Shown: positions 3,589 through 50,770, counted from the first letter of the stretch. The stretch: DNA of 64,000 nt from Armatimonadota bacterium (GCA_016235455.1 JACRKZ010000067.1:96001-160000); one strand, 5' to 3'. Numbers and translations: made by a program. Notes: generated by a model from the sequence alone, not told the origin.

Positions 3589-3750
3589 GCACCGCGAGCC
3601 GCTGCTGGACCGCTGAGCCAGCTTCGCTGGCGGCAGCTCCTGCTTGGCATCGGCCGCAAGGCCGACCCATGGGCGTCGCCGTTGGGAAGGTCGGGTCTAC
3701 GACCCGATGCCAAGCAGGAGCTTGGCGGTCCGGCACCGGTTCGGGCTGCT
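3588..3750. repeat. REP-like inverted-repeat element, copy A
   Basis: Arms ...CAGCTCCTGCTTGGCATCGG / CCGATGCCAAGCAGGAGCTTGGCGGTCCGGCA; spacer shared with 10884-11038. Confidence 0.8.
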
Positions 3751-3832
3751 CGGTGCAGCCATCGCGTTCGCGGCGAGTAGCCGCCGACGCCGCGACTGGC
3801 TATACTTCGGCCGTGCCCGACGGGGATGAAGG

Positions 3833-5854
3833 ATGCTCCGACTGCTGTTGCTCTACCTGGCCGTGGCCGCCGCCGCCGCCCAGATCGCCGATCCCGCCCA
3901 TCCACCGGTGGGCATCAAGCCCAGCCGGCCGGTCAACTTCCACCCTCGGCCACCGCTCTACTCGACCGAGGAGCTGTGGCGCTACGAGACGCCCAAGGTC
4001 GAGGCCTTCGCCGCCCGGACCTGGACCGAAATGGTCCAGAGCTTCGAGCGCGGGCCATACCGGCCGACCTGGGACTCGCTGTCGGCGCATCGCTGCCCAG
4101 AGTGGTTCCAGGATGCCAAGCTCGGGCTGTTCGTCGACTACGGCCCATGGTCGGTGGCGGGCTACGCGCCGTTCGCGGGCGCCGGCGCGGTCTACCCGGA
4201 CTGGTACGAGCTGCGCTTGGGCCACGAATGGAAGGCCTACCACGCGGAGACCTGGGGCGCGGATGTCACCGCGGACGATCTGGCCGACCTGATGGGCGCG
4301 CGGAAGTTCGATACCAAGGCCTTCTGCGAGATCGCCCGGGCCGGCGGCATGAAGTACGTCGTGCCGTTCCTCAAGCACCACGGCGGCTTCTGCCTGTGGG
4401 ACAGCTCGGTCACCCGGCGCGATGCCATTGACCGCGGGTTGGGCCGCGACTTCGCCGTGGAGTTCGCCCGCGACTGTCGCGCCGCCGGCCTGAAGTTCGG
4501 CACCTATGTCTCGCTGGGCGAGTGGGCCTACCCCGCCATCGACGGCAACCGGTTGCGCAAGTTCGGCTTCGGCGGCAAGATCGTGGGCGACCTGACTCCG
4601 GGCGAGCCGTTCATCGCCGGCAAGGTGCCGGTGCGTGACTACGCGCGCGACTACCTGGTGCCTCAGTGTAAGGAACTGATCGAGAAGACCAACCCCGACC
4701 TGCTGTGGTACGACGGCGAATGGGACGCGCCAGCCGAGACCTGGCGCGCGCCCGAGATCAATGCCTGGTACTACAACCGCGCCGCCCAGCGCGGCCAGGA
4801 GGTGGCCATCAACGACCGGAGCGGCAAAGGCTGCCGCGGCACGCCGGGCCGCTCGGACTTCATGTGCTCCGAGCACCACAGCCTCGACCCAGGCGCGCAG
4901 CAGCCGTGGGAAGAATGCCGCGGCATCGGCCATAGCTTCGGGTACAACTGGCAGGAGGCCTTCGACGACAAGTACGTGCTGTCCGAGCGCGAGTTGATCG
5001 GCATGGTCATCGACATCGTCGGCCGCGGCGGCAACCTGTTGCTGGTCATCAACCCCGACGGGTCCGGCGTCATACCGCCCAACCAGGAGCGCCGCATCCG
5101 CGCCTTGGGCCAGTGGCTGAAGGCCAATGGCCCGGCCATCTATGCCACCCGCGCGCTGAGCCTGCCCGCGCAGCCGGCGTGGGGCCGCATCACGCGCTCC
5201 AAAGCCGGCGACCGGCTCTATCTGCTGGTCACCAGGCTGCCCGCTGACAAACAACTGGCCGTGCCGGTCAAGGCCGCAGGGATCGGTCGGGCGCGGCTGC
5301 TTAGCGGCGCCCCGGTGCCGTTGACGGCGGGCGCCGACGGCTTCGGAGTTGACCTGTCGAAGCTGCCAGCCACCGCCTTCGACTCCGCGGCCACGGTGGT
5401 CGAGGTGGAGGTCAGGGGACCGCTCGTCGGCACGTTGCCCGCCGTGGCGCCGGCCGCCGACGGCAGCTACGCCCTGAGCTCGGCCAATGGCACGGCCAGC
5501 ACCACCGGCGGCCGGCCGACCGACCTGAAGATCAATGGCGACCCGCCGAAATTCGGCTACTGGGCCGGGCTGGACAATCAGATCACCTGGCGCCTGAGCG
5601 GCGCGCCGGGCCGCTACCGCGTGGTCGTGACCTATGCGGCGGACAACGACTGGAAGGGCCGTGCCGTGGTCACGGTCGGCGGCCGCGCGCTACCGTTCGC
5701 GGTGACGGGCACCGGCGGCACAACCGTGACGCGGGCCGTCGATCTGGGCACGGTCGAGCTGGAGAGCGGGGCCACGCTCGTCGTGCGCGGGACCGAGAAG
5801 CAGAGCCCGTACCTGATGGACGTCTACGGCGTGAAGCTGGTGCCCGTGAGGTAG
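3833..5854 (+). CDS. Alpha-L-fucosidase (GH29) with C-terminal CBM-like domain
   Basis: PEWFQDAKLGLF, KHHGGF, LWYDGEW, INDR, WEECRGIGHSFGYN motifs; signal peptide. Confidence 0.9.
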   Translation: MLRLLLLYLAVAAAAAQIADPAHPPVGIKPSRPVNFHPRPPLYSTEELWRYETPKVEAFAARTWTEMVQSFERGPYRPTWDSLSAHRCPEWFQDAKLGLFVDYGPWSVAGYAPFAGAGAVYPDWYELRLGHEWKAYHAETWGADVTADDLADLMGARKFDTKAFCEIARAGGMKYVVPFLKHHGGFCLWDSSVTRRDAIDRGLGRDFAVEFARDCRAAGLKFGTYVSLGEWAYPAIDGNRLRKFGFGGKIVGDLTPGEPFIAGKVPVRDYARDYLVPQCKELIEKTNPDLLWYDGEWDAPAETWRAPEINAWYYNRAAQRGQEVAINDRSGKGCRGTPGRSDFMCSEHHSLDPGAQQPWEECRGIGHSFGYNWQEAFDDKYVLSERELIGMVIDIVGRGGNLLLVINPDGSGVIPPNQERRIRALGQWLKANGPAIYATRALSLPAQPAWGRITRSKAGDRLYLLVTRLPADKQLAVPVKAAGIGRARLLSGAPVPLTAGADGFGVDLSKLPATAFDSAATVVEVEVRGPLVGTLPAVAPAADGSYALSSANGTASTTGGRPTDLKINGDPPKFGYWAGLDNQITWRLSGAPGRYRVVVTYAADNDWKGRAVVTVGGRALPFAVTGTGGTTVTRAVDLGTVELESGATLVVRGTEKQSPYLMDVYGVKLVPVR

Positions 5855-5891
5855 TGCGCCGCAGTCAGCGGCGGCAGGAAGGGAAGCGACG

Positions 5892-6905
5892 ATGCTGGGC
5901 TGGGCGATCATCGGACTGGGCGGCGCCGGAACCGGGCACGCGCGGCGACTGGCCGACATACCGGAGCTGCGGCTCGTCGGTGGCTACGATCCGCAACCGG
6001 CGGCGCGCGCTGCGTTCGAACGGACCTTCGGCCTGCCCGCGGCGGACGATCTCGACGCGCTGTTGGCGCGCGGCGACATCGCCGGAGTGACCGTGGCCAC
6101 GTCCAGCGGGCAGCACGCCGAGGTGGCGCTGGCGGCCATCGCGGCCGGTAAACACGTGCTGGTCGAGAAGCCGCTCGGCATGACGGCTACCGAGGTGGCG
6201 ACCGTCCTGACCGCGGCGCAGGCGGCCGGCGTGGTGGCCGTGCCCTTCCACAACCGGCGGTTCGACCCCGACTTTGCCGTGGTGCACGACTGCCTGGCCT
6301 CGGGACGGCTCGGCCGGCTGAGGCGCATCCATTCGTATGTCGGCGGCCCGTCGCCCAATGAGGGTTGGCGCGCCGTACGCGCACAGGCCGGCGGCCGGCT
6401 CTATGACTGGGGTCCGCATCTGCTCGACCAGGTGCTCAGCCTGGCCGGCACGCTACCGGGCACTGTGTGGGGCGTCACGCACGTGCTGCCCGAACGCGGC
6501 GATGCCGATGAGTACTTCCGCGCCGACCTGCGCTTCGCCGACGGGCTGGACGTCACCGTGGAGATGTCCGGCTTCTCCTACCTGCGGCCGCAGCGCTGGG
6601 AAATCCTTGGCGATCTGGGCACGCTGCAGGTGACCGGCAACCTGCACGGCGAGTTCCGGCTCACCGTCGGAGTGGGCGCCGGTGAGCCCGAAATTCTCGA
6701 CACCAGCGCGGCCGCGGAGAATGCCCGGCGCGGCGACGGCGGCGTACTGATCTACCAGCAACTCGCCGCGCGCTTGGAGCGCGGCGAGCCGCTGACCGTC
6801 ACCTGCATGGACGCGTGGCGCGTGGCGGCGGTCATGGACGCCATCCGCGCCTCGGACCAGGCCGGCGCCGCCATCGCGCTGGAACTATCGAGCGGCACGG
6901 CGTGA
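5892..6905 (+). CDS. Gfo/Idh/MocA family oxidoreductase
   Basis: IIGLGGAG Rossmann motif, GKHVLVEKP, HNRRFD, GGRLYDWGPH. Confidence 0.9.
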   Translation: MLGWAIIGLGGAGTGHARRLADIPELRLVGGYDPQPAARAAFERTFGLPAADDLDALLARGDIAGVTVATSSGQHAEVALAAIAAGKHVLVEKPLGMTATEVATVLTAAQAAGVVAVPFHNRRFDPDFAVVHDCLASGRLGRLRRIHSYVGGPSPNEGWRAVRAQAGGRLYDWGPHLLDQVLSLAGTLPGTVWGVTHVLPERGDADEYFRADLRFADGLDVTVEMSGFSYLRPQRWEILGDLGTLQVTGNLHGEFRLTVGVGAGEPEILDTSAAAENARRGDGGVLIYQQLAARLERGEPLTVTCMDAWRVAAVMDAIRASDQAGAAIALELSSGTA

Positions 6906-6914
6906 GCCCGACCG

Positions 6915-7457
6915 CTACTCCTGTTCGGAGGCCGGCTTCTTGATGCCCACCTGCAGGCTGGACCACTCCAGCATCTTCCAGATGCCGGACTTGGTCAGCT
7001 TCATGCGGAACGGGCGTGGGTTGTCGGCGCCGCCGCACTTGACCATCAGGTAGACCACCTTGCCCTCCTGCTGGAGCTTGTCGGTGGTGAACTCGAGCTC
7101 GAACTTGTCCGGATCCATCTTGTAGTCGTTGTCCGGCACGGCGCCCTTGGCGTAGCTCTGGTAGAGGTAGGGCTGCTTCTGCAGGGTGGCGCGCCCCAGC
7201 ATCTCCTTCTCCCAGTCGGCGTTGTCCGTACTCGTGATCAGGCCGACCATCTCCCGGCCCTTGGCCTTGATGGTCTCGTCCGCGTTCAGATAGACATACA
7301 ACGCCTCGAGCCACAGGTGCGCCGCCGTCTTGTACTCCTTGCCCTCTGTCTCCAGTCGCGTCTTGAACTCGTCCACGGTGGCGGGCAGCTTGGCGCACGT
7401 CGGTGAAGCCACGCCTACGGCGCAGGCGCAGGCCAACAGCACTAGCAATCCACGCAT
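6915..7457 (-). CDS. Secreted hypothetical protein (DUF6935-like)
   Basis: Signal peptide MRGLLVLLACACA; SYAKGA.P.N.Y and GGADNPRP...W..LEWSSL motifs; GGAAGG RBS. Confidence 0.6.
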   Translation of the reverse strand: MRGLLVLLACACAVGVASPTCAKLPATVDEFKTRLETEGKEYKTAAHLWLEALYVYLNADETIKAKGREMVGLITSTDNADWEKEMLGRATLQKQPYLYQSYAKGAVPDNDYKMDPDKFELEFTTDKLQQEGKVVYLMVKCGGADNPRPFRMKLTKSGIWKMLEWSSLQVGIKKPASEQE

Positions 7458-7657
7458 GTTGGGCATCCCTTCCACGTCTCCGGCATCGCTGACGGCCTGG
7501 CTGCACCCAACACCCGTGAGCGTGCCGGCCGCCAGCGAGCGCTGGGCGGTTGGGCTGATTCTAGGCACGGCCGGTGGCGGTCGCTAGGGGTAACGCGGTG
7601 AGCCCGAGTGTGTCCTGACCAGCGCCACACCCGCGCCGGGCGGAACGCCTCGGCCCG

Positions 7658-8254
7658 TCACGACCTGGCCTCCGCCAGCAGCGCGTCCAGGTGCTGGTCG
7701 GGCGTGGCCGAGTCGTACGGGGCGAGTTCGCTCCAGGTGAGCATCGGCCCATCGGCCGGCCAAGGGCCGGAGACGCCGGCCATCTGGCCATGGCCGGCGG
7801 CCCAGTGCGGTGGATCGACGCGGAAGCGGAAGACGTAGAACGTGCCCTGCCGCGAGGTGCCGGGCACCTGGCGCGTGAGCGTGGCGGTCAGCGTCATCTC
7901 CGTGGGCAGGGCGCCCAGTTCGTGCGGATGCAGCAGCCAGGTGGCCATCTCCGACTCCGCCAGCCGGGGCTCGGCGGCCAGCGCAGGCGGGAAGAGGTCG
8001 AGACGCTGGCTGTCTTCGAGTGCCTCGTAGAGGTGCCAACGCGTGTCCAGCCGGTGCGCCAGCGCCGCCACCATCGCCTGGTCGACCGCCTGGCCCTGGT
8101 CCAGCGCCTTGGTGACTGGCGCGATGGCTGCGTCGAGCCGGGCCTCGAAAGCACGGTCGGTGCGGTCCAGGCCACCGCTTCCCATGGCCAGGTACAGACC
8201 CAGGCCGAAAAGCACCAACGCCACACAACCGAGGACCAGCAACTTGCGCTTCAT
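7658..8254 (-). CDS. Membrane-anchored hypothetical protein
   Basis: N-terminal TM MKRKLLVLGCVALVLFGLGLYL; LAESEMATWLLHPHELG..P motif; 10 nt downstream of the GH36 gene. Confidence 0.65.
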   Translation of the reverse strand: MKRKLLVLGCVALVLFGLGLYLAMGSGGLDRTDRAFEARLDAAIAPVTKALDQGQAVDQAMVAALAHRLDTRWHLYEALEDSQRLDLFPPALAAEPRLAESEMATWLLHPHELGALPTEMTLTATLTRQVPGTSRQGTFYVFRFRVDPPHWAAGHGQMAGVSGPWPADGPMLTWSELAPYDSATPDQHLDALLAEARS

Positions 8255-8264
8255 CACGACATCC

Positions 8265-10799
8265 CTACGCACCGGCACGCTCATAGACCAGCACGCGCAC
8301 GCCCGGCTGCTCGCCGATGGTCACCAGCAGGCCCGCGGCCAGCTCCGCGCCGGTCAGCATGCGCGGCGGCTGGTGCGCGTCCAGGTCAGTGACAGTGTAC
8401 TTCGCCGCGGCGTCAAGCCCGCGCAGCTTCAGGCGACCGGCCTCGTAGAAGCTGTCTTGCCGCCGGAAGACCTGCACCATGCCATCGCCCTGTTCGGGCC
8501 GGTCGAACTGCCAGCCGGCCCACACCGTGGCGTCGCGCGACACCGGCGTCAGTGGGTAGAAGTCGCCGTAATAGTACTTGTTGACCTGCCGCCACTGGCC
8601 ATAGAGCCGCCGTAGCGCCGGATAGTCCAGCCCGCGGTCACGCACATCGATGCCACTGCCCAGGCTCTGTCCCGCGTTGCTCCAGAACGCATAGGGCTCC
8701 ACCGGCGTGCGCCCGCCGCCATAGTAGCCCGCGTTGGCGCAGGCCACCGTGCCCGTACCGTGGTACGGCAGCCAGGTGCTCAGGCCCATCATCATGCACT
8801 GGTGGCCGATGGGCTCGAAGGCGTAGTCGCTGCGCCACAGCGGCACCGCGCGGCGCGCGCACTCCAGGTCCAGTCGGCGGCCGCCGCTGGCGCAATCGTC
8901 GATGAGCATGTCCGGGTGCCGCCGATGCAGCTCGTCCCAGTAGGCCAGGAGCCCCTCGCAATGGCGGATCTCGGTGATGCCTTGCCGGTCCTCGGCGTCG
9001 TGGCCGCGCCAGTAGCCCAGCGGGTCCATGTTGAAATCCTGGCGGTACAGCCCGATGCCCTGCTTGGTGAGCACGCTGTCGATGTGCTCGATGAGCCATT
9101 TGCGCGCCTCGTCGTTGCCCAGGTCCAGCAGGCCGCCAGCCTTGCCGCCGAGCACCCACTCGGGATGGTTGTCGGCCAGCCAGGTGCCGGCCGAGACGCG
9201 TTCCGGCTCGAACCACAGCAGCGTCTTGAACCCGCGCGCCTTCGCATAATCTGAGATGGGCCGCAGCCCGCCGGGGAACCGCGCGGGATCGACTTCCCAG
9301 GTACCCACATGTGGCCAGCCGGCGCCGTTGTGGATGTACCAGCCGGCGTCCATCCACCAGTAGTCGAGCTTGAGCCCTTCCTCCTCGTAGCGGTCGATGA
9401 AGGCCTTCTGGTTGGCCTCGTCAGCCTCGATCATCTCGGCATACTGCCGCGAGCTGGAGGCCACGAACTGCGGCCGGGGCAGCTCGCCGCCGGGCCGCGG
9501 CATCGAATGCGCCATCGTCCAACGGCGCCACACGTTCTGCCCGCGCAACCAGTCGCCGCCCTGCCAGAACTGCAGGACGATGGACGGCGTGCGAATGGAC
9601 TCACCCGGATGCAGCCGGAGATGCGTCAGCTCCATGCCCGCGCGCACCCGTAGCCCGCTGCTCACGTCGCGCGCGAACTCGGCGGCCCACTGACCCGGCC
9701 AGCCCACTGCCAGCACAACGCCGCGCCGGCTGCCATCGCCGTGGGGCGACTCCAGGTTGAAGTACGACCAGTGCTGGTTGGTCGAGCGGCCGCCCGCGCC
9801 GCCAAAACGCGTGGTCGAGCCGCCGCCGAGCACCGTCTCGCGCGGGCTGAAGTCATTCCCGTCAGCCGGCGAGCCGACGTTGTGATGCAGCAGGTACTCG
9901 CCGCCACCAGGCCGATTGAGGTCGACCGCCAGCGCCTGAACCTGCTCCAGCAGCGGCGTATCCTGCTCGCCGGTGTTGGTGAAATGGACCGTCCATTCGA
10001 CCGTGGGGAATCCGGGGTAGGCCACGCCGGCCAGCCGCACCCGCAGGCCCGTAGCCGGATCGGTCCAGGTCTGCTCAGTACCACGGCGCTCGTGCTTCCA
10101 GGTGGGCAGGAGTTCCGACGACGGTTTGCCGCCATAGACGAACGAGAACGGCGGGCCGCCGGCCAGCAGCGCCGCCGCGCGGTCGTCGCGCAGCGGCAGA
10201 TCGCCCAGCCACAGCTCGCGTCCATCGGCCAGCGCGACCTTGGCCTCGGCCCAGTCGGCCTGGTCGCAGGCGATTCCGTCGGGTGTGGTGTCCACCTGCA
10301 GCAGAAACTCGGTCGCGCCGTCGAGCGGCACCTTGACGGCGGCCGGCGGCATCCCTTCGCGCACCGTGCCCGAGCGGAACCGCTCCCCGCCGGCCACGCT
10401 CACGGCGAAGTCGACACTGCCGCGGCCGCCGCTGGTCTGGGAGTTGCTGTCCACGCCGACCAGCGCCGTGAACGTGGCGCCGGGGCCGGGCAGGCGCACC
10501 AGAATGCGGCTCGGCGCATGGCAATAGACGCCGCGCTCGAAGCTCTTGCCGGCCAGCAATAGCGGCTTGCCCTGCCGCGCGTTGAGGCTCGGCGCGTCGT
10601 GGTTGGCCAGGACGGTGAGGCCCGGCTCAAGCTGCGAGCCCGGCGTCTCACCACTCAACCGCGTGGCGGCGAATCGCGCCGCGAAGCCCTGCTCGTCTGG
10701 TGTGACCGTCACAGCCTTGCCCTCCGCGGCCAGCGCCAACGGCGCCAGCGCCGCCAGCGCCAACGGCGCCAGCGCCAGCAGGAACATGGATGGTGCCAT
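8265..10799 (-). CDS. Alpha-galactosidase (GH36) with N-terminal NPCBM/NEW2 domain
   Basis: YWWMDAGW, RFPGGL, LWFEPE, YRQDFN, DDCASGGRRLD; NPCBM GVYCHAPS...DQADWAEA. Start 10799 or 10808. Confidence 0.9.
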   Translation of the reverse strand: MAPSMFLLALAPLALAALAPLALAAEGKAVTVTPDEQGFAARFAATRLSGETPGSQLEPGLTVLANHDAPSLNARQGKPLLLAGKSFERGVYCHAPSRILVRLPGPGATFTALVGVDSNSQTSGGRGSVDFAVSVAGGERFRSGTVREGMPPAAVKVPLDGATEFLLQVDTTPDGIACDQADWAEAKVALADGRELWLGDLPLRDDRAAALLAGGPPFSFVYGGKPSSELLPTWKHERRGTEQTWTDPATGLRVRLAGVAYPGFPTVEWTVHFTNTGEQDTPLLEQVQALAVDLNRPGGGEYLLHHNVGSPADGNDFSPRETVLGGGSTTRFGGAGGRSTNQHWSYFNLESPHGDGSRRGVVLAVGWPGQWAAEFARDVSSGLRVRAGMELTHLRLHPGESIRTPSIVLQFWQGGDWLRGQNVWRRWTMAHSMPRPGGELPRPQFVASSSRQYAEMIEADEANQKAFIDRYEEEGLKLDYWWMDAGWYIHNGAGWPHVGTWEVDPARFPGGLRPISDYAKARGFKTLLWFEPERVSAGTWLADNHPEWVLGGKAGGLLDLGNDEARKWLIEHIDSVLTKQGIGLYRQDFNMDPLGYWRGHDAEDRQGITEIRHCEGLLAYWDELHRRHPDMLIDDCASGGRRLDLECARRAVPLWRSDYAFEPIGHQCMMMGLSTWLPYHGTGTVACANAGYYGGGRTPVEPYAFWSNAGQSLGSGIDVRDRGLDYPALRRLYGQWRQVNKYYYGDFYPLTPVSRDATVWAGWQFDRPEQGDGMVQVFRRQDSFYEAGRLKLRGLDAAAKYTVTDLDAHQPPRMLTGAELAAGLLVTIGEQPGVRVLVYERAGA

Positions 10800-10883
10800 G
10801 GGTCGCATGGTAGCACTTCCCCTGGTGGGGGATTGGCTGTTCGCTGGCGGTCACCTGCCGCGCCGGATGGCCACCAGAACCAC

Positions 10884-11038
10884 GATCGGCGCCGCCAGTG
10901 CCGGACCGCCACGCTCCGGCGTGGCATCGGCCACAGGCGAAGCCGGCGGCCGACCGGATGGCGTCGCCGTTGGGAAGTTCGGGTCTGCGACCCGATGCCA
11001 CGCTGGAGCGTGGCGGTCCGGCACTGGCGGCGCTGATC
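10884..11038. repeat. REP-like inverted-repeat element, copy B (about 47-bp arms)
   Basis: GATCGGCGCCGCCAGTGCCGGACCGCCACGCTCCGGCGTGGCATCGG ... CCGATGCCACGCTGGAGCGTGGCGGTCCGGCACTGGCGGCGCTGATC. Confidence 0.9.
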
Positions 11039-11043
11039 CGTGC

Positions 11044-13797
11044 CTACGCGCCTCTCACCTCGACGGTCCCACTCGGCCCCACCGGCGCGCCACCCCTCAC
11101 GGGCACACGCAGCGTCACCGTCCGCTCGCCCTCGCCGGCGGCGATGGTCACCGCGAACGGCGCCGGCGCGCCGTCGGCCTTGGTGCCCAGCAGCACACCG
11201 TCGACCCACACTTCGGCCGCGCCGCCGAGCTCGGCGAAGCACAGCGCCCCGCCTTGCGCGCGCGCCGCGGCGAACGGCGTGAACTGGGCGCGGAACAGCA
11301 CCCAGCCGTCGCTGGGCAGAGTCTGGCAACCAGTCTCGGGGCGCACCTGGAACCACGAGTTCATGTCACTGTCGGCGATGACCTGCCGCGGGTCAGGCGC
11401 CTCGTTGGTCAGCGGCGACATGCGCCAGCGGCTCACGCGCAGCGTCGGCGGCTCGGGCGCCACCGCTGGCCGCGCCGGAGCGTCGGTCACCGTCAGGCGC
11501 AACTCGTAGCCCCTCAGGCCCTCGGCGTTGGCCGTCAGCACCACCTCGCCCGGCCCGCCGGTGGACTGGATGATGACCTGCGCCAGGCCGGCAAACAGCG
11601 AGCGCTGCCAGCCCTGCTCGGGCTCGTGGCAGGTGGGGTCGCCATTGCCCAGGCCGATGATGCGCGCTGGGCCGCTGATGGTGAAGGTCACCAGGTGGTC
11701 GGCGGTCGGATGCTCGAGCCAGGCGTCGTCGCTGGCCACGGCCCGCACTTCGACCGGCAGCACATGTTCGCCGTCACCCAGCAGCCCGCCGTCGTGCAGC
11801 AGTTGCAGCGCCACGGGCTCGCCCTGCGTCTCGACATACTCCACCAGGCCCGGACCGTGGTCGGGCGCCGAGGCCGTCAGCGTACCCGGCTCATAGGGCA
11901 CCAGCCACTCGGCGGTGCCGTCGGGTGCGACCGTCTGCCGGCCCTGGCTGCGGTGGTTGAGCCGCAGCTCCACCTCCGGCAGCGTGGTGATGACCATGAC
12001 CTTGATCGGCTCGCCCTCGCGGCCGGCCCAGTTCCAGTGCGGCGCGATGCGCAGCATGGGCTCCCTGATCCACTGGACCTGGTGCAGGTAGAAGGCGGTC
12101 TTGGGGAAGCCGCACTGGTCCATGATGCCGAAGAACGACCCGACCACGGGCCACACGTGCGGCGTGGGCTCGCCATGGTAGTCGAAGCCGGTCCAGGTGA
12201 ACCCGCCGGCCAGCCACTCGCGGTCGGCCACCGCGCGCCATCCGGCGCGGTGCGTGGCGCCCCAGGGCGCGGCCTGCGTGTCGTCTTCGGCCATGATGCA
12301 GCGCTCGCTGTCGGTGGTCCAGGCGCCGCGCGTCATGAAGGCCGAGGTGTCCTCGCTGCTGGTAACCGGCAGCGCCGGGTTGGCCGCATGGAAGCGGTCG
12401 TAGGAGTCGATCTGGTAGTTGAACCCGACCACATCCACCGCCTGGCTGACGTTGACCGGCTCGAACAGCCCGCCGTTCATGGCTGCGGTCACCGGCCGAG
12501 TGCGGTCCAGCGCCCTGACCACGCTGGCCATGCGCCGCACCATCTCGTAGCCCACGGGCGAGCCCTGCATAGGCTCCTCGTTGAACACCGACCACAAGAT
12601 GACGCTAGGGTGGTTGCGGTCGCGCCGCACCAGCCATTCGAGCTGCCGCACATACTCGGGCGAGCAGTTGAAGTGGCGGTTCTCGTCCATGACCAACATG
12701 CCCAGCCGGTCGCAGGCGTCCAGTAACTCCACCGATGGCGGGTTGTGGGCACAGCGATAGGCGTTGCAGCCCATCGCCTTGAGCCGGCGGATGCGCCATT
12801 CGACCAGCGCGTCGGGCACCGCCACGCCCACGCCGGCATGGTCCTGATGGTTGCAGGTGCCTTGCAGCTTGACCGGCTGTCCGTTGAGGAAGAAGCCCTG
12901 GTCGGCATCGAAGCGCAGCGTGCGGAACCCACAGGTCGTGGTCACCTCGTCGACCACCGCGCCGTCGACCAGCAACTCGCTGTGCACGCGATACAAGTAC
13001 GGCTCATCGACCGACCACAAGTTCACTGACGGCACATCCAGCACCATGGCGGCCTCGGCCTCGCCGAGCACCGGCACCAGCGCCTGGACCGCGCCGCCGA
13101 CCACCGGCCGCCCGTCGGCGTCGAGCAGTGTCGACCGCACCTGCACCGCCGCGTCGTCGTGTCCGCAGTTGGCCAGCGTCACGCTCACGGGCAAGCGCCA
13201 GCCGTCCCCGCCGCGCACCGGGTCGGCATGCACGCCGTCGGTGACGATATGCACCGGCGCGCGCTTGGTCAGCCAGGTGTGGCGATAGATGCCGCCGCCC
13301 TCATACCACCAGCCCTCCATGGCATTGGCGTCGACGCGCACGGCGATGACGTTGATCGCATCGCCATAGGTGGCGAACGGCGTGATGTCGATGTGGAACG
13401 ACGTGTAGCCGCACCAGTTGCGATGCACCACCGTGCCATTGACCCACACCGTGCAGTGCGTGGCCACGCCATCGAAGCTCAGTTCCAGGTGCCGGCCACG
13501 GTCGGTCTCCTCCAGCCGCAACCGCCGCCGATACCAGGCGATGCCCCGCGGCCGATAGCCTTGGGACGGGTTGGCCTGGGGGTCGAACGGCCCTTCCACC
13601 ACCCAGTCGTGCGGCAGATCGAGCACGCGCCACTCGCTGTCGTCGAAGTCGGGCGCGGCGGCGCCCCAGGCCACGCCGGCCTTGGCGTTCATGTAGGTGT
13701 CGCCGTGACCGTTGAGCGACGGGAACGCGATGTCGCCGAGATGGAAGCTCCAGCCGAGGTCGAGACGGAGGTGGTCGCGGGCGGGTTGATCGGGCAT
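11044..13797 (-). CDS. Beta-galactosidase (GH2)
   Basis: LPHDW, WYEGGGIYR, NHQDHAGVG, RCAHNPP, RDRNHPSVILWSVFNEE, GGFTWTGFDYHGEPTP. Confidence 0.95.
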   Translation of the reverse strand: MPDQPARDHLRLDLGWSFHLGDIAFPSLNGHGDTYMNAKAGVAWGAAAPDFDDSEWRVLDLPHDWVVEGPFDPQANPSQGYRPRGIAWYRRRLRLEETDRGRHLELSFDGVATHCTVWVNGTVVHRNWCGYTSFHIDITPFATYGDAINVIAVRVDANAMEGWWYEGGGIYRHTWLTKRAPVHIVTDGVHADPVRGGDGWRLPVSVTLANCGHDDAAVQVRSTLLDADGRPVVGGAVQALVPVLGEAEAAMVLDVPSVNLWSVDEPYLYRVHSELLVDGAVVDEVTTTCGFRTLRFDADQGFFLNGQPVKLQGTCNHQDHAGVGVAVPDALVEWRIRRLKAMGCNAYRCAHNPPSVELLDACDRLGMLVMDENRHFNCSPEYVRQLEWLVRRDRNHPSVILWSVFNEEPMQGSPVGYEMVRRMASVVRALDRTRPVTAAMNGGLFEPVNVSQAVDVVGFNYQIDSYDRFHAANPALPVTSSEDTSAFMTRGAWTTDSERCIMAEDDTQAAPWGATHRAGWRAVADREWLAGGFTWTGFDYHGEPTPHVWPVVGSFFGIMDQCGFPKTAFYLHQVQWIREPMLRIAPHWNWAGREGEPIKVMVITTLPEVELRLNHRSQGRQTVAPDGTAEWLVPYEPGTLTASAPDHGPGLVEYVETQGEPVALQLLHDGGLLGDGEHVLPVEVRAVASDDAWLEHPTADHLVTFTISGPARIIGLGNGDPTCHEPEQGWQRSLFAGLAQVIIQSTGGPGEVVLTANAEGLRGYELRLTVTDAPARPAVAPEPPTLRVSRWRMSPLTNEAPDPRQVIADSDMNSWFQVRPETGCQTLPSDGWVLFRAQFTPFAAARAQGGALCFAELGGAAEVWVDGVLLGTKADGAPAPFAVTIAAGEGERTVTLRVPVRGGAPVGPSGTVEVRGA

Positions 13798-13920
13798 GTT
13801 GTCGGCTCCGGGGGAGATGGTAGCGGGTGAGGCGGTTGTCGGCTAGGGGCTGTGGCAACTGCGCCTGGCGTCAGCTGCGGATGCCGCGCCGGTCAGTTGG
13901 GCCAGCGGCCGGGCCAGACT

Positions 13921-14240
13921 GGTTACACCGCGCTCCAGCGCGGCCTTGGAGTCCGGCTCGGAGCCAAACGGTGCATCGGTTGTCCAGCCAGTGCCGCCAG
14001 TGCCGGTGCGCCAATCGCCAGATTGGCATCGGCCGGAGGCGCAGCCGCAGGCCGACATCGCGGCGGACCTGTGGCCAACGGTGGTCCTACGGACCACTGC
14101 CAAGCTGGAGATGTCGCCAGCTCTGCCATCTCAGCGTACCGGCGTCAGCGCTGCTGGTCCTCGGCGCTGGAGACGGCCAACGCCGAGTAGAATCGCCATT
14201 CGCTTGGAGGCCGGCATGGCGCCAAGGCGCGGCGAGCCCG
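13921..14240. repeat. Composite REP-like element, copy C (13986-14210), nested in a degenerate outer REP pair
   Basis: About 225 bp matching the reverse complement of 50543-50770; outer arm CCGCGCTCCAGCGCGGCCTTGG near 13928 and CCAAGGCGCGG near 14222. Confidence 0.8.
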
Positions 14241-14254
14241 GACTGGCCCCGACT

Positions 14255-15265
14255 CTAGCGCAGCCACTTCTCGTCGATCTCGAAGGCGTCGATAAGCGGG
14301 GTGGAATCCGAGATGGGCATCTGATTCCAGCGTCCACGCCACGGCTGCGGCGGCACGCGGTCGGGTTGGTACGACAGCCCGCCGCCGTCCAGCCCGATGG
14401 CCATGCCCACGGTCAGCCGCCAACGGCCGGCGAACAGCCATCCCTCCCACTCCGGCGCGCCGAGCAAAGCCGCCACCTCGGCTCGCGAGCGGCCCAGCAA
14501 GCGCCCGCTCGCGATCAGGTCGAGAGCCAGGGCCACGCGTCGGCCCGGCTCCTGCCGCCAGAGCGCCGCGTCGAACGATCGGCGCGCGGGCACCGGGTCC
14601 CGGTCCCTGGCAGTGCGCCACAGCTTCACCTCAACCGCACCCGACCAGGGCGTGTAGAACACCTCCAACAGGGGCGCCGCTGTGTTGCCTGGCGGCGCCA
14701 GTCGGTAGTTCTGCTCAATGGTGCGCGGCCGGTAGCCGAACCGCGGCTCGTCGACCAAGCCGGTGCCGGGCACGGCGCTCACGTAGTCAGGCACCAAGGA
14801 CTGCAGCCGGGGTGGCGGATGCTGATGGTCCTTCTCGTAGCGACCGATGGCCGCGATGAGCGTGTCGGTGCGCGCGTCGAAGCGCACCTTCGCCGCCTCG
14901 TTGCCGCGCCGCGCCGCCCACATGCCCCCCGGCACGCTGGCAACCAGGGCCAGGTGGAAGGCCAGGACGATCCATGCGGCCACCCTGACCGGACGACCGC
15001 GCCGCCGAGCCCACGACCGCAGACAGAGCAAACAGAGCCCGCCGGCTAGCCCGCCGAAGAATGGGTACACGCAGAGAAGGCCCTCAAAGCCGATGCCGCC
15101 GTTCTTGAGTTCCCGGCCCTGCCAGGCACCCACCACCATGCGCAGCCACATCAGCTCCACCGCGGCGAGCCCTGAGCACCAGGCGACAGCAACCAGGCCG
15201 GCACACACCAGGACGATGGCGCGGAAGACGCGCCCGACCTGATCTCTTCGCAATGTCGTCGCCAT
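14255..15265 (-). CDS. Membrane protein: three TM segments, a pseudopilin-like motif and an SmpA/OmlA-like segment
   Basis: AGGAG RBS before MATTLRR; LIAAIGRYEKDHQHPPPRLQSLVPDY; FDAALW...LLGRSRAEVAALLGAP. Confidence 0.6.
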   Translation of the reverse strand: MATTLRRDQVGRVFRAIVLVCAGLVAVAWCSGLAAVELMWLRMVVGAWQGRELKNGGIGFEGLLCVYPFFGGLAGGLCLLCLRSWARRRGRPVRVAAWIVLAFHLALVASVPGGMWAARRGNEAAKVRFDARTDTLIAAIGRYEKDHQHPPPRLQSLVPDYVSAVPGTGLVDEPRFGYRPRTIEQNYRLAPPGNTAAPLLEVFYTPWSGAVEVKLWRTARDRDPVPARRSFDAALWRQEPGRRVALALDLIASGRLLGRSRAEVAALLGAPEWEGWLFAGRWRLTVGMAIGLDGGGLSYQPDRVPPQPWRGRWNQMPISDSTPLIDAFEIDEKWLR

Positions 15266-15368
15266 GGCCAAGCTCCTGCTCGGGGCGGGTCGCGGTCGCC
15301 CCAGCGGCCGCGGCATCCGGCGCCTGCCCGAACAACCAACGTGCGACGACGGCGGATCCGCCACCGAG

Positions 15369-16901
15369 TCACCGCCGCCGCCGTGGCCCCAGCCAGCCGG
15401 TGCAGCCTGAGCGGCCCTCCGGCCGCGCTCCAGGCGCCGCCGGCATCGGCGGAACGGGCCCGACAAACCCGCTCAGTCCGCTGGCCCGCGCGATCTGGGC
15501 GTAGACCGGCCAGGTGGAGTCCGGGTCGATCCTGGCCGCCTGGCGAATGCGTTCCCAGGCCTCCTCCTTGCGACCGAGCTCCAGGGCGCACAGCGCCAGC
15601 GCCTGCAACGCCGGCGCCGAGCCCGGCTGCAGCTCGACCGCCCGGCGGTAACGGGCGATCGCCTCCTCGCGGCGACCCAGCTCACACAGCACGTTGGCGC
15701 TGACGATCCAGGCCTCGGCCTCGGTTGGCGTCGCGGCCAGCCACTCCTCGCACTTGGCCAGAGCGGCCTCCGGCTCGCCAAGCCGGAGCAACCAGAGCGC
15801 CCAGTCGGCGTAGACTGGCGCCCAGCCCGGGCGGATGGCCAGCGCCGCGGCGAACTTGCCGGTAGCGGCTTCCCAGTCACCGCGCATGGCCAGGCACAGG
15901 CCCCACAGATGCAGCGACGGGTAGAGGCGCGGCTGGACAGCCAGCGCGGCCCGGAGCCGCTCTTCGGCGCGGACCAGGTCGCCATCGACCAGTGCCCTGC
16001 GCCCCAGGTGGTGGAGAGCGATGGCATCGCGCGGGTCGGCCGCAAGCGCCTGCTCGAACCACCGCTCGGCCTCGCCCGGCGTGCCCTGTCGCACAGCGTG
16101 GAGGCCCCGCGACCGCAGCGCCACGCCGCAGCTCGCGTCGGCTTCGAGCGACCTGCGCAGCGACTCCAGTCCAGCCGTCTCACGGCCGTCAGCCAGCAAT
16201 GCGCTGCCGCGCCAGGCCCAGGCCTCCGCGTCGCTTGGGTTGAGGGCGAGCGCGCGCTCATAGTGCTCGATGGCGCCTGCGAGGTCGCCCTGCGTTTGGT
16301 GCGTTGTGCCGACAACCACGAGTGTGCTCACGTCGTCCGGCACGATACCGAGGGCCGCATGGTACTTGGCCAAGGCGCCGTCAAGGTCCCCTGCGTCGAA
16401 CAGCGCATGGCCCCAGCAGAGCAGCGCGGACCAGTGCCCTGGATCAGCCGCCAAGGCCGCTCGGCACTTGGCGATGGCGCCTTCGGCATCACCCAGGCGC
16501 TGTAGAGCCGAGCCCCATTCGCAGAGGGCGCGAGCATCGCCCGGGTCGCGAGCCACGAGTTCCGACAGGATGGGCACGGCAAGCTCCGGCTCGCGCGCTG
16601 CGGTGTGCTGCACGGCGATGCTCAGCAGCACTTCGGGGGCGGCCTGGCCGTCATGCTCTTCACCCCACGCCGCCGCCTCGCGTAGCAGTGCCATCACCTC
16701 GGCGCGCCGGCCCACGCCGGCCTCGGCGGCGATCAACTTGGCCTCGTACAGCCGCTCGAAATCCACGTCCCCGTTCGCCGAAGCCCAGTCAGTCAACTGC
16801 CGGAGCCGCCGAGTCCACGCCTGCGGGTCGTTGCGCCAGCGGGGTTCGGCTTCGAGATAGGCATCTCTGTAGCGGGCCAGCCGTGCGGCTCGGTCAGTCA
16901 T
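15369..16901 (-). CDS. Tetratricopeptide repeat protein
   Basis: About 11 tandem TPR-like units (A...Y.RALAL.P.DA.AW); GGAGG RBS. Confidence 0.85.
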   Translation of the reverse strand: MTDRAARLARYRDAYLEAEPRWRNDPQAWTRRLRQLTDWASANGDVDFERLYEAKLIAAEAGVGRRAEVMALLREAAAWGEEHDGQAAPEVLLSIAVQHTAAREPELAVPILSELVARDPGDARALCEWGSALQRLGDAEGAIAKCRAALAADPGHWSALLCWGHALFDAGDLDGALAKYHAALGIVPDDVSTLVVVGTTHQTQGDLAGAIEHYERALALNPSDAEAWAWRGSALLADGRETAGLESLRRSLEADASCGVALRSRGLHAVRQGTPGEAERWFEQALAADPRDAIALHHLGRRALVDGDLVRAEERLRAALAVQPRLYPSLHLWGLCLAMRGDWEAATGKFAAALAIRPGWAPVYADWALWLLRLGEPEAALAKCEEWLAATPTEAEAWIVSANVLCELGRREEAIARYRRAVELQPGSAPALQALALCALELGRKEEAWERIRQAARIDPDSTWPVYAQIARASGLSGFVGPVPPMPAAPGARPEGRSGCTGWLGPRRRR

Positions 16902-17232: not shown

Positions 17233-17247
17233 GATAGGAGACGCATC

Positions 17248-17937
17248 ATGAGTCGCAGACGAGCATTCACCCTCATCGAGCTGCTGGTGGTGATCGCGAT
17301 CATCGCCATTCTGGCGGCCATCCTCTTCCCCGTCTTCGCCAAGGCTCGCGAGAAGGCGAGGACCTCCAGTTGCGCCAGCAACGAGAAGCAACTGGTGCTG
17401 GGCCTCATTCAGTACAGCCAGGACTACGACGAGAAGTGGCCCGGCCGCGCCATCAACACCGAGGACTACCAGTGGCGCGTGCTGGTTCAGCCGTACCTGA
17501 AGAGCTCCCAGGTCTTCGTCTGCCCGTCCAACACCGCCAACGAGTGGGGCACGGGTGGCAACCAGGGCAACACGTACCGTCGCTCCTATGCCTGCAACGG
17601 CCATGACGCCTTCAACACGCCCATGCGCTGGAACAATGGACAGGCACTGGCGGCGCTGGTGGCGCCTTCCCAGACCATCCTGGTCTGCGAGAGCCGCGAG
17701 TGGTGGACGGAGATGAACCTGGACTATGTCGGCGCGAACTGGACCGGCCGCGGCCCGTCGCTGTTCTCCAGCCACATGTCCATGGGTAACTACGGCTTCT
17801 GCGATGGTCACGTCAAGGCCATGAAGGCCAGCCAGACTGCCACCACCACGATCTTCATGTGGGACCAGAACCCGCAGCAGGCCGCTCCGGCCAACATCAT
17901 CGCCAACATGCAGTCGGTGGACCAGCAGTCGCAGTAG
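17248..17937 (+). CDS. Prepilin-type N-methylation / H-X9-DG (DUF1559-like) protein 1
   Basis: [58 protein letters not shown]. Confidence 0.92.
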
Positions 17938-17966
17938 CGCTGACCCAGCTACCGGCAAGGTCCGTT

Positions 17967-20981: not shown

Positions 20982-21605
<624 letters not shown>

Positions 21606-37688: not shown

Positions 37689-38409
37689 ACCAACCGTTGT
37701 CGGGGTTGCCGTCACGGTCGAAATCGTCCAGTGCGCCGCGAGTCAGCGCCTTGGCATGCCCGTCGGCGAAGGTGACGTTGACCGTGTCCAGATGGCGCGC
37801 GGCCGGCTTGGCGCGGCAGCCGTCGGCGCCGCTGCCACCCTCGGCGCCTTCGCCGTAGTACCCGCTCGCTTTGCCACTGCCGCGAGCCGAGACATACGGC
37901 GGATCGACCACGTACTCACCGGCGCCGAGTGAACCGTCGTCGCGCCGCACGCCGGCGGTGTCGGCCAGGGCGACCGTCTGGGCCGGCACCTGGATCTGCG
38001 CGTCGACCGCCGTCCAGGGGAAGCGGCTGTTGCCCAGGTACTGGTAGTTGTAGCCCAAGCCGCCGAAGGTGGCCGTCGGATCGACCACGAACCGCTTGGC
38101 CATGTCGGCCGGGGCGGTGGGACAGCGGTAGGCCTGCACGTTCCTCACGTACGGGTAGATGTAGTCCGGCCACTTGGGCCGCACAGGCGCACTGGACGGC
38201 GCGGACATGAACGGATAGGCCTCGTAGTCGGTCACGTACATGGCCAGCGCGGCGCCCAGCTGCTTGCCCTGGCTCAGACACGAGATGGCCCGCGCCTTCT
38301 CGCGCGCTTTGGCGAACACGGGAAACAGGATGGCGGCGAGGATCGCGATGATGGCGATGACCACCAGCAGTTCGATGAGCGTGAACGCCGCACCACGTCG
38401 ACCAGTCAC
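37657..38409 (-). CDS. Prepilin-type N-methylation / H-X9-DG (DUF1559-like) protein 3
   Basis: [10 protein letters not shown]..., [28 protein letters not shown]; GTG start inferred. Confidence 0.9.
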
Positions 38410-38524
38410 AATGCAGTCCCCAACGACGCCGATCGTAGCAGACCCAGTGCTGGATTTCGGTGAGCGGCGGAAGAGATCCGCGCGAGTCCGGCGAAACGGG
38501 GGCGGGTGACGCGGGAGCACACGG

Positions 38525-40243: not shown

Positions 40244-40250
40244 GCGGCGG

Positions 40251-40885: not shown

Positions 40886-40886
40886 T

Positions 40887-42125: not shown

Positions 42126-42186
42126 GGTGCTTCCCTCGGTTCTGGTGCGTTGACCGCCGATACCATACCAAGCCGAGGGGGTTCGG

Positions 42187-42963: not shown

Positions 42964-42973
42964 GGTGCGCGCC

Positions 42974-43831: not shown

Positions 43832-43941
43832 GGCGTCCTTCCCATCTGGCTCTGATGGTAGCCGATGCCCGGCACGACGACCAGACTGGCTTCGCGCCGC
43901 TGGGCTTGATACACTGGCGCCCGATGCTGGAGATCGGTCGC

Positions 43942-45396: not shown

Positions 45397-45406
45397 GAGC
45401 AGGCGC

Positions 45407-48303: not shown

Positions 48304-48319
48304 ACCGAAAGGCGAAACG

Positions 48320-49177: not shown

Positions 49178-49262
49178 CCCCGGCTTGACAACCGGCCCCG
49201 GCGCCGACCACACTCTCCTTGGTGCCGTCGCGTCAGCCAGCGGTCGGAGGGGAGCATCTGCC

Positions 49263-49805
49263 ATGAGCCTACTGCGTGGTCGGCGCCCGCACAGGGCGCG
49301 TTGGGCGTTGACTGCGACGCTGTGTCTGGCGGGCCTGGCGACCGCCGCCCAGGCGCGGTCGGTCAGGCCGTATGTGGTGCGGCTGACGCTCTGCGGCTGG
49401 CGCGTGGGAGCCACGAAGTTCGGCGCCCTGCACGACGCTGGCAGCGGCTACTACCTGATCGCCACGGGCGACTGCGACGGCGCGTCGCGCTCACTCATTC
49501 CGACGCCCGACCCGCCAGAGTGGACCAAGCCGTCGCCAGTGACCCAGACCCGCCTATCCCGCCTGCGGACCGGCACCGGTGTCAACATCGGCGACACCGT
49601 CTCGGTGGTCGCGGCCAAACTCGGCGCCCGGCCGGACTCCATCAGCAACGACCGCGAGACCGGTTAGGTCACCTACGCCTACTGGCGGCAGGTGCGGCCG
49701 CGCACGTGAGGACGGAGCGACGACCGCTATACGGCCGAGTACACCTTCCGCGACGGCACGCTGCGCGCGATACGCTACAGCGTATGCGACTCGCGCCGCT
49801 GCTAG
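49263..49805 (+). pseudogene. Paralog of 49945-50502 interrupted by in-frame TAG (49665-67) and TGA (49707-09)
   Basis: Shared RPY.VRLTL, GYYLIATGDCDGAS, RLRTGTGVNIG; similarity continues past both stops (RYTAEYTFRD versus RYGATYTFRD). Confidence 0.8.
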
Positions 49806-49944
49806 TAAGGCGCCGGGTGCGGCGTGGGAGACGGGGCGAAGGAGGCTGCGATTCCGTCGGGCTGGCGGCGTGCGCCGACCCATCCGACTTGACACGCCCA
49901 ATGCCACGAACCACGATCTCACCGACGATGTAAGGAGTACCACG

Positions 49945-50502
49945 ATGGGGACCAGACGAGTCATCGCGGGAATCGCAGGGCTGGCGGTGCTGTTCATTGT
50001 GGCGACCGCGCTTGAGGCGGCCGCCGGCCAGCCTCGGCCCTACCTCGTGCGGCTGACTCTGGCCGGCGGCAAGTTGGTCGACCAGGCTGACTACTGCAAG
50101 TTCGACAAGAACCAAGGCTACTACCTGATTGCCACCGGCGACTGCGATGGCGCTTCCGTTGACTTGGTGCTTACGCCGGACCCCACACCCTACGGCTGGG
50201 GTGGCGACACCACGGACGGCGGCCGGCCGCCGACACCGGCTAGCCTGCCGCGCCTGCGCACGGGCACCGGCGTGAACATCGGCGAGTCGCCCAAGCAGGT
50301 GCTGGCCAAACTGGGCGCCAAGCCTGAGAGCAACACCTACGACAAGAAGACCAGAGTGCGCGAGATGTGCTTCTACGCCAAGGTCAAGGTGCGATCCATG
50401 GGTCGCGACTACACACGGTATGGTGCCACCTACACCTTCCGCGATGAGAAGCTGTGGAAGATCGGCTACGGCATCGGGACGGAAGATGGCTGCGGTGAGT
50501 AG
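49945..50502 (+). CDS. Secreted hypothetical protein
   Basis: TAAGGAG RBS; signal peptide MGTRRVIAGIAGLAVLFIVATALEA; promoter TTGACA-17-CACGAT at 49889-49917. Confidence 0.8.
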   Translation: MGTRRVIAGIAGLAVLFIVATALEAAAGQPRPYLVRLTLAGGKLVDQADYCKFDKNQGYYLIATGDCDGASVDLVLTPDPTPYGWGGDTTDGGRPPTPASLPRLRTGTGVNIGESPKQVLAKLGAKPESNTYDKKTRVREMCFYAKVKVRSMGRDYTRYGATYTFRDEKLWKIGYGIGTEDGCGE

Positions 50503-50542
50503 CTCTGCGTGCGCCACGCGCAGCGAGTAGTCTGCCGTTCCA

Positions 50543-50770
50543 CCTCGGGGCGGATGGCGGTTCCACTCGGTGGTGGCAGTCTCCGGCGCCGACGACTGGC
50601 TTCGCTGACGCCGGTATGCCGATCTCCAGATTGGCAGTGGTCCGCAGGACCACCGATGGCCGCCGGACCGCCGCGATGTCGACCTGCGGCTCCGCCTCCC
50701 GCCGATGCCAATCTGGAGATGCCGCCAGTTCTGCTGGCTCAGCGCACCGCCACTGGCGGCACTGACCGGC
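50543..50770. repeat. REP-like inverted-repeat element, copy D
   Basis: Reverse complement aligns along its length with 13986-14210; arm cores GCCGATCTCCAGATTGGC and GCCAATCTGGAGAT. Confidence 0.85.

Follow-up and report, generated by a model that had tools for sequence, protein, structure and literature searches.

We have analysed a 64,000-nt stretch of DNA (the window, C35:96001-160000 of the genome assembly) from an Armatimonadota bacterium, which carries four copies of one palindromic intergenic repeat, named A, B, C and D. In some arms of this repeat, a 22-nt stem-loop unit, here called the cassette, occupies the place of a host nucleotide triplet. The assembly is a metagenome-assembled genome from groundwater, with a size of 6.5 Mb in 185 contigs, a GC content of 69% and an estimated completeness of 93%. 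Positions given without a contig name are window positions (Table 1); A, C and D denote the window elements, and C12, C28, C35, C177 and so on denote contigs. The four elements have eight arms, five with a triplet and three with the 22-mer. The five triplets are CAA, CAC, CAC, CAA (with the inner arm TCGCC) and CGA (with the outer arm TGC). As to their location, A, B and C each sit directly after a stop codon or between genes, and element A begins 10 nt past the stop codon of the upstream gene on the plus strand.

Table 1. Repeat elements, cassettes and a local hairpin in the window
Feature	Position	Strand	Description
Host element A	3598..3739		Outer arms GGACCGC/GCGGTCC, inner arms GCTCCTGCTTGGCATCGG, central hairpins
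Cassette copy A	3614..3635	+	TGAGCCAGCTTCGCTGGCGGCA; left arm of a short-centre type-2b element; 6-bp side hairpin
Intact local hairpin, right arm of A	3709..3726	+	GCCAAGC-AGGA-GCTTGGC
Element B, type 2	10884..11038		Both arms empty, triplets CAC/GTG
Host element C, long-form type 1	13951..14210		Left arm empty; cassette, then R' flank module, in right arm
Cassette copy C	14112..14133	-	TGAGATGGCAGAGCTGGCGACA on the minus strand; right arm of a long-form type-1 element; hairpin decayed
Host element D, long-form type 1	50543..50802		Inverted relative to C within the window
Cassette copy D	50720..50741	-	TGAGCCAGCAGAACTGGCGGCA on the minus strand; left arm of a long-form type-1 element when D is turned to the orientation of C

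The 22-nt cassette and its junction

The sequences, positions and strands of the three 22-mers agree exactly with an earlier note on this DNA, and so does its observation that two of them can form a hairpin: folding as single-stranded DNA gives 6 bp for copy A and 5 bp for copy D, and copy C is degenerate. In the whole assembly the cassette occurs seven times, i.e., three times in the window and four times elsewhere. The junction is identical in all seven copies, reading CGC^...^(G/T)CTCC, and its 5' side is C|T in 7/7. The TG...CA ends, which are also the termini of IS3 elements, had been described as uniform for the three window copies; they are present in five of the seven copies, but the C12 copy ends in AA and the C28 copy in CG.

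The cassette is an almost perfect inverted repeat, which in the right-arm copies reads TGAGCCAGC / GCTGGCTCA. Its own stem is at best AGCCAGC/GCTGGCT, is 5–6 bp long in D and A, and has decayed in C and C35:21621. The loop variants track the host groups, with AGAG or AGAA in type-1 arms and TTCG in A and C28. When filled and empty arms are compared, the common prefix and suffix cover only 8–9 of the 11 nt of the empty arm, and therefore the cassette replaces the host triplet rather than being inserted with a duplication; a target duplication of 3–4 bp, as for IS3-type insertion, was not seen at the cassette. The cassette was never found in both arms of one element.

The consensus 22-mer, searched genome-wide with up to 5 mismatches allowed, gave 56 matches, of which 49 have no arm context and 7 lie at the junction in arms of the family. 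As these seven share one junction in arms of one family, they are not due to chance. With an nhmmer profile made from the window's four elements, 74 matches were obtained, corresponding to 42 loci, 6 of them with the 22-mer; the seventh copy (C28:237-258) lies in a longer and more divergent element that this profile missed. The genome-wide tabulation of arms proposed in the earlier note was also run. Four inner-arm 14-mers, at ≤1 mismatch, gave 141 matches in the genome, comprising 75 arms with an intact 5' stem strand (scored at ≤1 mismatch) and no 22-mer, 7 arms with the 22-mer at the same junction, and 59 other rows, about 7 of which are degenerate or truncated family arms by eye and the rest apparently isolated matches. 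Among the arms of this census, no other kind of insert was found at the junction.

In total, the family has about 90 arms of at least four subtypes, in the 42 loci plus others, and the cassette is present in 7 of these ~90 arms. Elements with the outermost inverted repeat of the long form, which the profile missed, were further observed at C177:11526-11760, C56:8057-8290, C105:1962 and C142:8795, so the family is larger and more varied than the 42 loci. Given these features, we favour the view that the 22-mer would be a dispensable, non-coding stem-loop cassette, that is, an alternative allele of 3 nt at the foot of the arm hairpin.

Two kinds of look-alikes were met in these searches. Standalone copies of the core GCCAGC-N3-5-GCTGGC, with 66 matches, were rejected as candidates, and two similar hairpins on C108 belong to a pair of paralogous coding regions. 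A match to the consensus with 2 mismatches lies at C84:44537-44558, outside any arm and with a broken stem; its chance expectation, by a rough estimate under an independent-bases model, is ~0.01.

Architecture of the host repeat family

The hosts are nested palindromes of ~130–300 nt, which resemble bacterial interspersed mosaic elements (BIMEs) and REPINs, the hairpin-forming doublets of repetitive extragenic palindromic (REP) sequences. Each arm contains a local 18-nt hairpin with a 7-bp stem, GCC-NNNC / TCCN / GN'N'N'-GGC. Perfect hairpins of the form GCC-NNNN-.CC.-N'N'N'N'-GGC number 86 in the genome versus 18–21 in three shuffled genomes. The stem has four alleles, ACGC, AATC, AAGC and GCGC, all fully complementary, and it shows clear covariation. 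The triplet therefore belongs to the 5' strand of the local stem. That is, the "central triplet" of the earlier note is indeed present in five of the eight arms, but it is part of a hairpin stem and not a free spacer.

The two arms pair into one long hairpin, with z-scores of the DNA folds ranging from −3.4 to −9.4. Element A, folded as single-stranded DNA, has a minimum free energy of −52.2 kcal/mol (z −7.9), and element B, with inverted arms of 47 nt that are 96% complementary, has one of −62.3 kcal/mol (z −9.4). In an arm with the cassette, the local hairpin is broken, and the unit forms in the DNA folds the third helix of a three-way junction, located between the outer and inner stems and opposite the triplet of the partner arm. 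In element A, the triplet TTG at 3722–3724 of the right arm stands opposite the cassette. The local hairpin of the left arm of C occupies 14010–14027, with its triplet CAA at 14012–14014. The cassette-free arm of D has the triplet CGA (TCG on the other strand) at 50620–50622, which is seen in no other arm. This triplet can pair with the TGA that opens the cassette, better than the usual TTG would, and may be a compensatory change or a footprint.

Long forms have more nested inverted repeats, out to an outermost repeat of ~32 nt (GTTGTGCCGGC...CTTCCA), and optionally a right-hand module, R'. The outermost repeat, a terminal inverted repeat in the manner of miniature inverted-repeat transposable elements, has 19 matches at ≤7 mismatches, and these occur mostly as pairs 107–240 nt apart and otherwise as single copies. 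A long element bounded by this repeat was not found in the assembly, and no target-site duplication of host elements was seen in the few copies inspected by eye.

Elements of mixed subtype amount to 6 of the 27 with two empty arms. These six chimeric elements are at C65:67581, C73:16678, C88:55788, C91:12144, C98:746 and C184:48724, and on C147 a type-1 left arm is joined to a type-2 centre. By this composition, the family is a mosaic in the manner of BIMEs. In only 3 of 21 elements is an arm's own partner its best match, and there is no general signal of homogenisation within elements.

The label REP, which the earlier note had used, fits the family in part. The units are GC-rich, extragenic, multi-copy inverted hairpins, but no cognate gene for a REP-associated tyrosine transposase (RAYT) was found, and inspection of the arms revealed no GTAG or CGTC tag at the hairpin end, where the 5' side reads CCGGTAC, CCGGACC or GGGAGC and the 3' side ATCGG or AGTGG. 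All of the 42 aligned loci are single elements, with no tandem array among them, and the sites examined lie between open frames with high GC content at third codon positions. An Rfam scan of the window at gathering thresholds gave no match.

Descent and probable lateral transfer of the cassette

Four copies sit in the right arm of long-form type-1 elements (C, C177:15827, C35:21621 and C12:6808). The R' module and the outermost inverted repeat are common to all four, which lie in otherwise unrelated DNA. Evidently, these four have received the cassette by descent, when the host element was copied; since it was inherited with the host, the cassette does not stop host propagation. The remaining copies, D, A and C28, need separate events. 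Thus, the earlier statement that simple inheritance is insufficient holds for these three, while inheritance explains the other four.

Elements C and D are collinear across ~260 nt (~225 bp had been claimed before), in three blocks with 74–90% identity. Their flanks and centres have the same orientation, yet the cassette is in opposite arms, as noticed earlier. D belongs to the same long-form group and has in common with C the derived left outer arm GGTGCGC, but it holds the cassette in the left arm. In element A, the inner arm with a TCCT loop is unique to A and is present in both its arms. Likewise, the element on C28, of type 3 and ~290 nt long, has a unique outer arm, CAGACTGGTTACGC, in both its arms. 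In D, too, the flanks of the cassette belong to its own element. With such native flanks in A and C28, arm sequence has not been carried along with the unit, and the moved segment would be at most the 22-mer plus 3–5 shared bases on each side.

We have further compared the identity of the 22-nt cassette with that of 30+30 nt of flank for pairs of copies, using the Fisher test. For A and C28, the cassette is identical at 21/22 positions and the flank at 37/60 (p = 0.002); for D and C177, the values are 20/22 and 41/60 (p = 0.03–0.05). Within the descent group, C and C177 have 17/22 in the cassette versus 55/60 in the flank, and therefore the cassette is not under strong constraint. Since it decays at least as much as the host within the group, yet is better conserved across host types, it has most simply moved laterally. 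On these identities, lateral transfer is probable and an old polymorphism is not. Overall, the 22-mer evidently behaves as a discrete cassette with fixed boundaries, and should have changed arm or host at least three times.

At A, C and D, the arm with the cassette is the one nearer to the stop codon of the upstream gene and lies in sense to it; the arrangement is opposite at C12 and ambiguous at C35:21621, and was not assigned for C177 and C28. A selected RNA or protein site was considered and rejected, because the stem is gone from two of the seven copies and the orientation to genes is inconsistent. The decayed copies apparently give no sign of a selected function, nor is any effect evident on the genes nearby, which encode glycoside hydrolases and prepilin-like proteins. 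An origin of the 22-mer from the element's own repeat or stem was likewise rejected. Of 28 local alignments against shuffled controls, one gave p = 0.013, and this lone match is at positions 200–218 of a 220-nt reference stretch, i.e., at its far end, which is probably flanking DNA. By eye, the 3' half of D could pair with the outer repeat TGCCGCCAGT, and the stem has a likeness to GCCA(A)GC, but the alignments support neither resemblance.

How the lateral step took place can be discussed at several levels. Our preferred reading, held tentatively and at rather less than an even chance, is that of a cassette on mosaic palindromic repeats that would spread both with its host and laterally by enzymatic strand exchange. 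The cassette would ride passively when the host element is copied, giving the four right-arm type-1 copies at four unrelated loci. The lateral step would be a precise replacement of the triplet in another arm, which would have happened at least three times, namely in the left arm of D and, by entry or by passage from one to the other, in A (type 2b) and the long type-3 element on C28. Strands would be cleaved and rejoined at the two junction points of hairpin-folded single-stranded DNA, and the enzyme may be whatever mobilises or shuffles the host family, comparable to the Y1 transposase TnpA-REP in the shuffling of the modules of E. coli BIMEs. An enzyme is favoured because of the identical boundaries in unlike arms, the C|T 5' junctions and the TnpA-REP precedent; that an enzyme rather than replication did the transfer is nonetheless doubtful.

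Our verdict is that the 22-mer would best be regarded as an optional and non-autonomous module within a family of mosaic repeats. The earlier note had suggested a site-specific micro-element. The discrete cassette with at least three changes of arm or host at identical boundaries agrees with this suggestion, but no transposase of its own was found. In its strongest form, the 22-mer would be a site-specific mobile cassette, a hyperparasite of the hairpin foot of another repeat, exchanged for 3 nt by an HUH/Y1-type or a novel single-strand nuclease-ligase and carried along with each copying of its host. We consider this form unlikely; if true, 22 nt would be among the smallest such cassettes known to us.

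For enzymes, three transposase domains were searched in the 93%-complete assembly, namely rve (IS3-type), DEDD_Tnp_IS110 and Y1_Tnp. Neither of the first two has a match, in an assembly where repeats may be unassembled, and Y1_Tnp is found in three genes (C159, C129 and C111). Elements of the IS200/IS605 type have subterminal hairpins at both ends and a Y1 TnpA that acts on single strands, and they insert without target duplication 3' of a fixed tetra- or pentanucleotide. For the cassette, no duplication, a fixed 5' context CGC| and Y1 genes in the genome were observed, but it has one hairpin and not two. A half-site search, noisy in DNA of 69% GC, found no longer element with the cassette's ends at the junction. 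The longer elements with these ends that had been proposed for a search are thus represented only by the 22-mers themselves and chance pairs, and the sole well-formed pair of half-sites, 902 nt apart on C1, was rejected as it lies inside a 1241-codon open frame. Palindromes of a foreign kind were observed at RAYT-like genes, on each side of the one on C159 (L031:1337-1445 and 1940-2010) and upstream of the one on C129 (L032:1313-1393). These palindromes may represent separate REP/RAYT systems.

The family was not found in any other genome or metagenome searched. Exact matches are absent for the cassette plus junction pattern in public genome, metagenome and viral contig collections, for the type-2 centre plus arm pattern in public genome contigs, and for the type-1 arm pattern in public metagenome contigs. 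BLAST of copy C against 30 relatives gave just two weak short matches. Across 201 genomes of the phylum, the arm pattern occurs 47 times in this genome and 0–5 times in each of the 200 others; the single exact foreign arm match (in G198) was set aside as chance, lying in unrelated AT-richer sequence. The family appears private to this organism. For the gene beside A, the best orthologue in five family-level relatives is 60% identical at protein level, and the 420 nt across and after the 3' end of that orthologue in G002 carry no such element, at a distance too great to be informative. We have also compared contigs (no raw reads) of the runs X1, X3, X5 and X6 over 3000–15000. The X1 contigs, possibly from the source sample, span A and C without gaps, with both filled, and are the only ones that cover the two sites; those of X5 and X6 stop before or at the repeats. 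A related population is seen in the runs X5–X8, which have about a quarter or fewer of the sampled 31-mers in common with this genome.

A number of results weigh against the preferred reading, i.e., host-borne and enzymatic lateral spread. The family was found in no relative searched, and hence there is no orthologous pair of empty and filled loci; nor was an empty allele observed at A or C in the contigs of the four runs, in which rare variants are invisible. The data comprise only seven copies from one metagenome-assembled genome, and the excess of conservation rests on 22 positions per pair, with flank alignments near the random baseline of GC-rich DNA. The maximum-likelihood tree of 14 type-1 copies, for which the column filter admitted non-homologous flanks, has no starred branch and gives no order of gains and losses. 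At the junction, the 3' side reads C|T on the other strand in only 2/7 copies. For the lateral step no enzyme was identified: no family arm lies within 1.5 kb of any of the three Y1_Tnp genes, an absence that is not proof in an assembly 93% complete, and two of the three are flanked by palindromes of another kind. Finally, template switching limited by microhomology would also give tight boundaries.

This last process is the core of an enzyme-free alternative, in which template switching or very short-patch gene conversion copies the cassette between arms, with descent as in the preferred reading. Hairpin arms would stall forks or get cut, and the microhomologies CGC (3 nt) and (G/T)CTCC (5 nt) would set the switch points. 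These are the only bases common to unlike arms beside the cassette, and they give exactly the observed boundaries. The absence of a cognate enzyme from what was found in the assembly and the chimeric elements (6/27), which fit inter-arm recombination as well, point the same way. Furthermore, template switching between inverted-repeat arms, with hairpin changes and arm homogenisation, is documented (PMC8794818, PMC8604942, PMC7202029). However, the switches on record act locally, while the cassettes of A, C28 and the type-1 elements are at dispersed loci or on separate contigs, and the flank identity of 37/60 between A and C28 is near random and too low for RecA-type pairing. Arms show no sign of having been homogenised inside elements (own partner best in 3/21), and the cassette is not a reverse-complement copy of nearby element sequence in 28 comparisons. 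We hold this alternative to be rather unlikely. Less probable again is an ancient two-allele polymorphism, in which ancestral arms existed with and without the 22-mer and repeated precise loss, with no transfer, has produced the present pattern. Loss is mechanistically easy, as an arm copied from its partner makes the palindrome perfect again. The two variants of the cassette, which are distinguished chiefly by their loops, go with the host groups, and the cassette is kept in only 7 of ~90 arms. What makes it improbable is that the cassette decays within the group (17/22 vs 55/60) and yet A and C28 agree at 21/22 despite flanks of 37/60, and that C and D, which share a derived outer arm, do not hold the cassette on the same side, so that it must have been gained at least once.

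The two remaining alternatives had been put forward in the earlier note, and neither has held up. If arms of a subtype bearing the 22-mer had replaced ordinary arms as a whole, through gene conversion or formation of chimeras, the existing chimeric elements (6/27) would be in line with it. But the arm sequences beside the cassette in A and C28 are their own unique variants and match their own partner arms; later homogenisation could hide such an exchange, but it has left no general signal (3/21), which makes exchange of whole arms very improbable. The other alternative regards the 22-mer as an excision scar of an IS3-like or REP-targeting insertion sequence (IS), i.e., as terminal inverted repeats fused after imprecise excision. 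The near-perfect inverted repeat and the TG...CA ends in 5/7 copies would suit a scar, although two bases per end carry little information, and REP-targeting insertion sequences are documented (PMC1525189, PMC12288879). Against this, no rve or DEDD_Tnp_IS110 domain was matched in the 93%-complete assembly, where repeats may be unassembled, no longer element with these ends is present at the junction, and the triplet is replaced rather than duplicated. Four separate imprecise excisions would hardly all leave an identical remnant of 22 nt, and the outermost repeats of the host, being only paired 107–240 nt apart or single, do not indicate a parent insertion sequence. A scar is thus extremely improbable, and the proposed link to IS3 or IS110 is not supported, given the missing domains, longer element and target duplication.

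Related repeat systems and genomic surroundings

Several known systems come close to this family. E. coli BIMEs are mosaics of y, z1 and z2 REPs with the linker motifs L, S, s, l and r; in vitro, TnpA-REP cuts at C|T in linkers and next to the inverted REP copy (iREP) and recombines the sites, and atypical BIMEs are chimeras of such modules (PMC3333891). The present family is similar in being an intergenic mosaic of inverted hairpin units, with optional modules at fixed positions, with chimeras and with C|T at the junction, which suggests that cleavage and rejoining of folded single-stranded DNA may diversify modules here too. It differs in that neither a GTAG tag nor tandem arrays nor a cognate RAYT between such arms were found, the nested palindromes are longer (to ~300 nt), and the variable module is in the stem and not in the linker.

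Pseudomonas REPINs consist of two inverted REPs and a spacer, with long-hairpin versus "clover" folds (PMC3116915). Similarly, the inverted hairpin arms here can adopt a single long hairpin or separate local ones, with compensatory changes, and the family is extragenic with tens of copies. On the other hand, REPINs are defined by a single-copy RAYT, which was not found for this family, and the available text of PMC3116915 has no mention of an optional cassette that replaces a part of the REP stem. REPs are also known within larger palindromes. According to PMC3733652, a conserved unpaired GTAG (or CGTC) tag marks one end of the REP hairpin, GTAG-23 units of T. roseum lie inside CCGSSCC(n3,4)GGSSCGG, and GTAG-15 dimers of A. 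variabilis lie inside long palindromes. There, as here, a small hairpin recurs at one position in a larger palindromic repeat, but those units are abundant, GTAG-tagged and central, whereas the cassette has 7 copies and no tag and replaces 3 nt of a stem.

Insertion sequences that target REPs include IS1397 and ISKpn1 (IS3) and ISPpu9 (IS110) (PMC1525189, PMC12288879). The cassette has in common with them a site-specific link to REP-like palindromes and, as to its TG...CA ends, a resemblance to IS3 termini; unlike them, it has 22 nt, no coding capacity and no target duplication, and no such transposase was found in the assembly. Template switching at quasipalindromes can make or move hairpin asymmetries in imperfect inverted repeats with no dedicated enzyme (PMC7202029, PMC8794818), which is a further likeness, but the known events copy nearby sequence, while the cassette matches nothing nearby and is common to dispersed loci. 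Considering all these features, the family is, in our judgement from the sequences, a variant within the REP, BIME and REPIN-like mosaic repeats, and not a canonical REP.

Ideas on the mosaic diversification of REPs, BIMEs and REPIN-like repeats still derive for the most part from in-vitro experiments with a single E. coli enzyme. The present family offers a clean natural marker for it, i.e., a module of 22 nt that is exactly bounded and occurs in three or more host backgrounds, together with evidence for transfer independent of the flanks. Should the transfer be enzymatic, the two junctions would mark the sites of cleavage and joining and delimit a minimal substrate; should it be based on replication, it would be an unusually clear example of templated insertion that recurs between dispersed palindromes and is bounded by microhomology.

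In the window, A, B and C punctuate a gene run (997–15466) that includes glycoside hydrolases, i.e., an alpha-L-fucosidase, a GH36-like protein with NPCBM, and GH2. A further neighbouring product is an N_methyl/DUF1559 prepilin-like protein, and the open reading frame (ORF) beside D (50821–51444, minus strand) matches N_methyl and DUF1559. DUF1559 is typical of planctomycetes, and by its gene content the organism is probably a planctomycete. The other large repeat family of the window, at 17263–17442, 21408–21599, 38256–38400 and 51186–51336, is coding and corresponds to the conserved N-termini of paralogous prepilin-like proteins. At 10720–10781, a tract of 9/15-nt repeats of the GCCAGCGCC type is found within the ORF 8265–10808 (minus strand), and one contig of run X6 is without 15 nt at 10742, which represents a length polymorphism in a related population.

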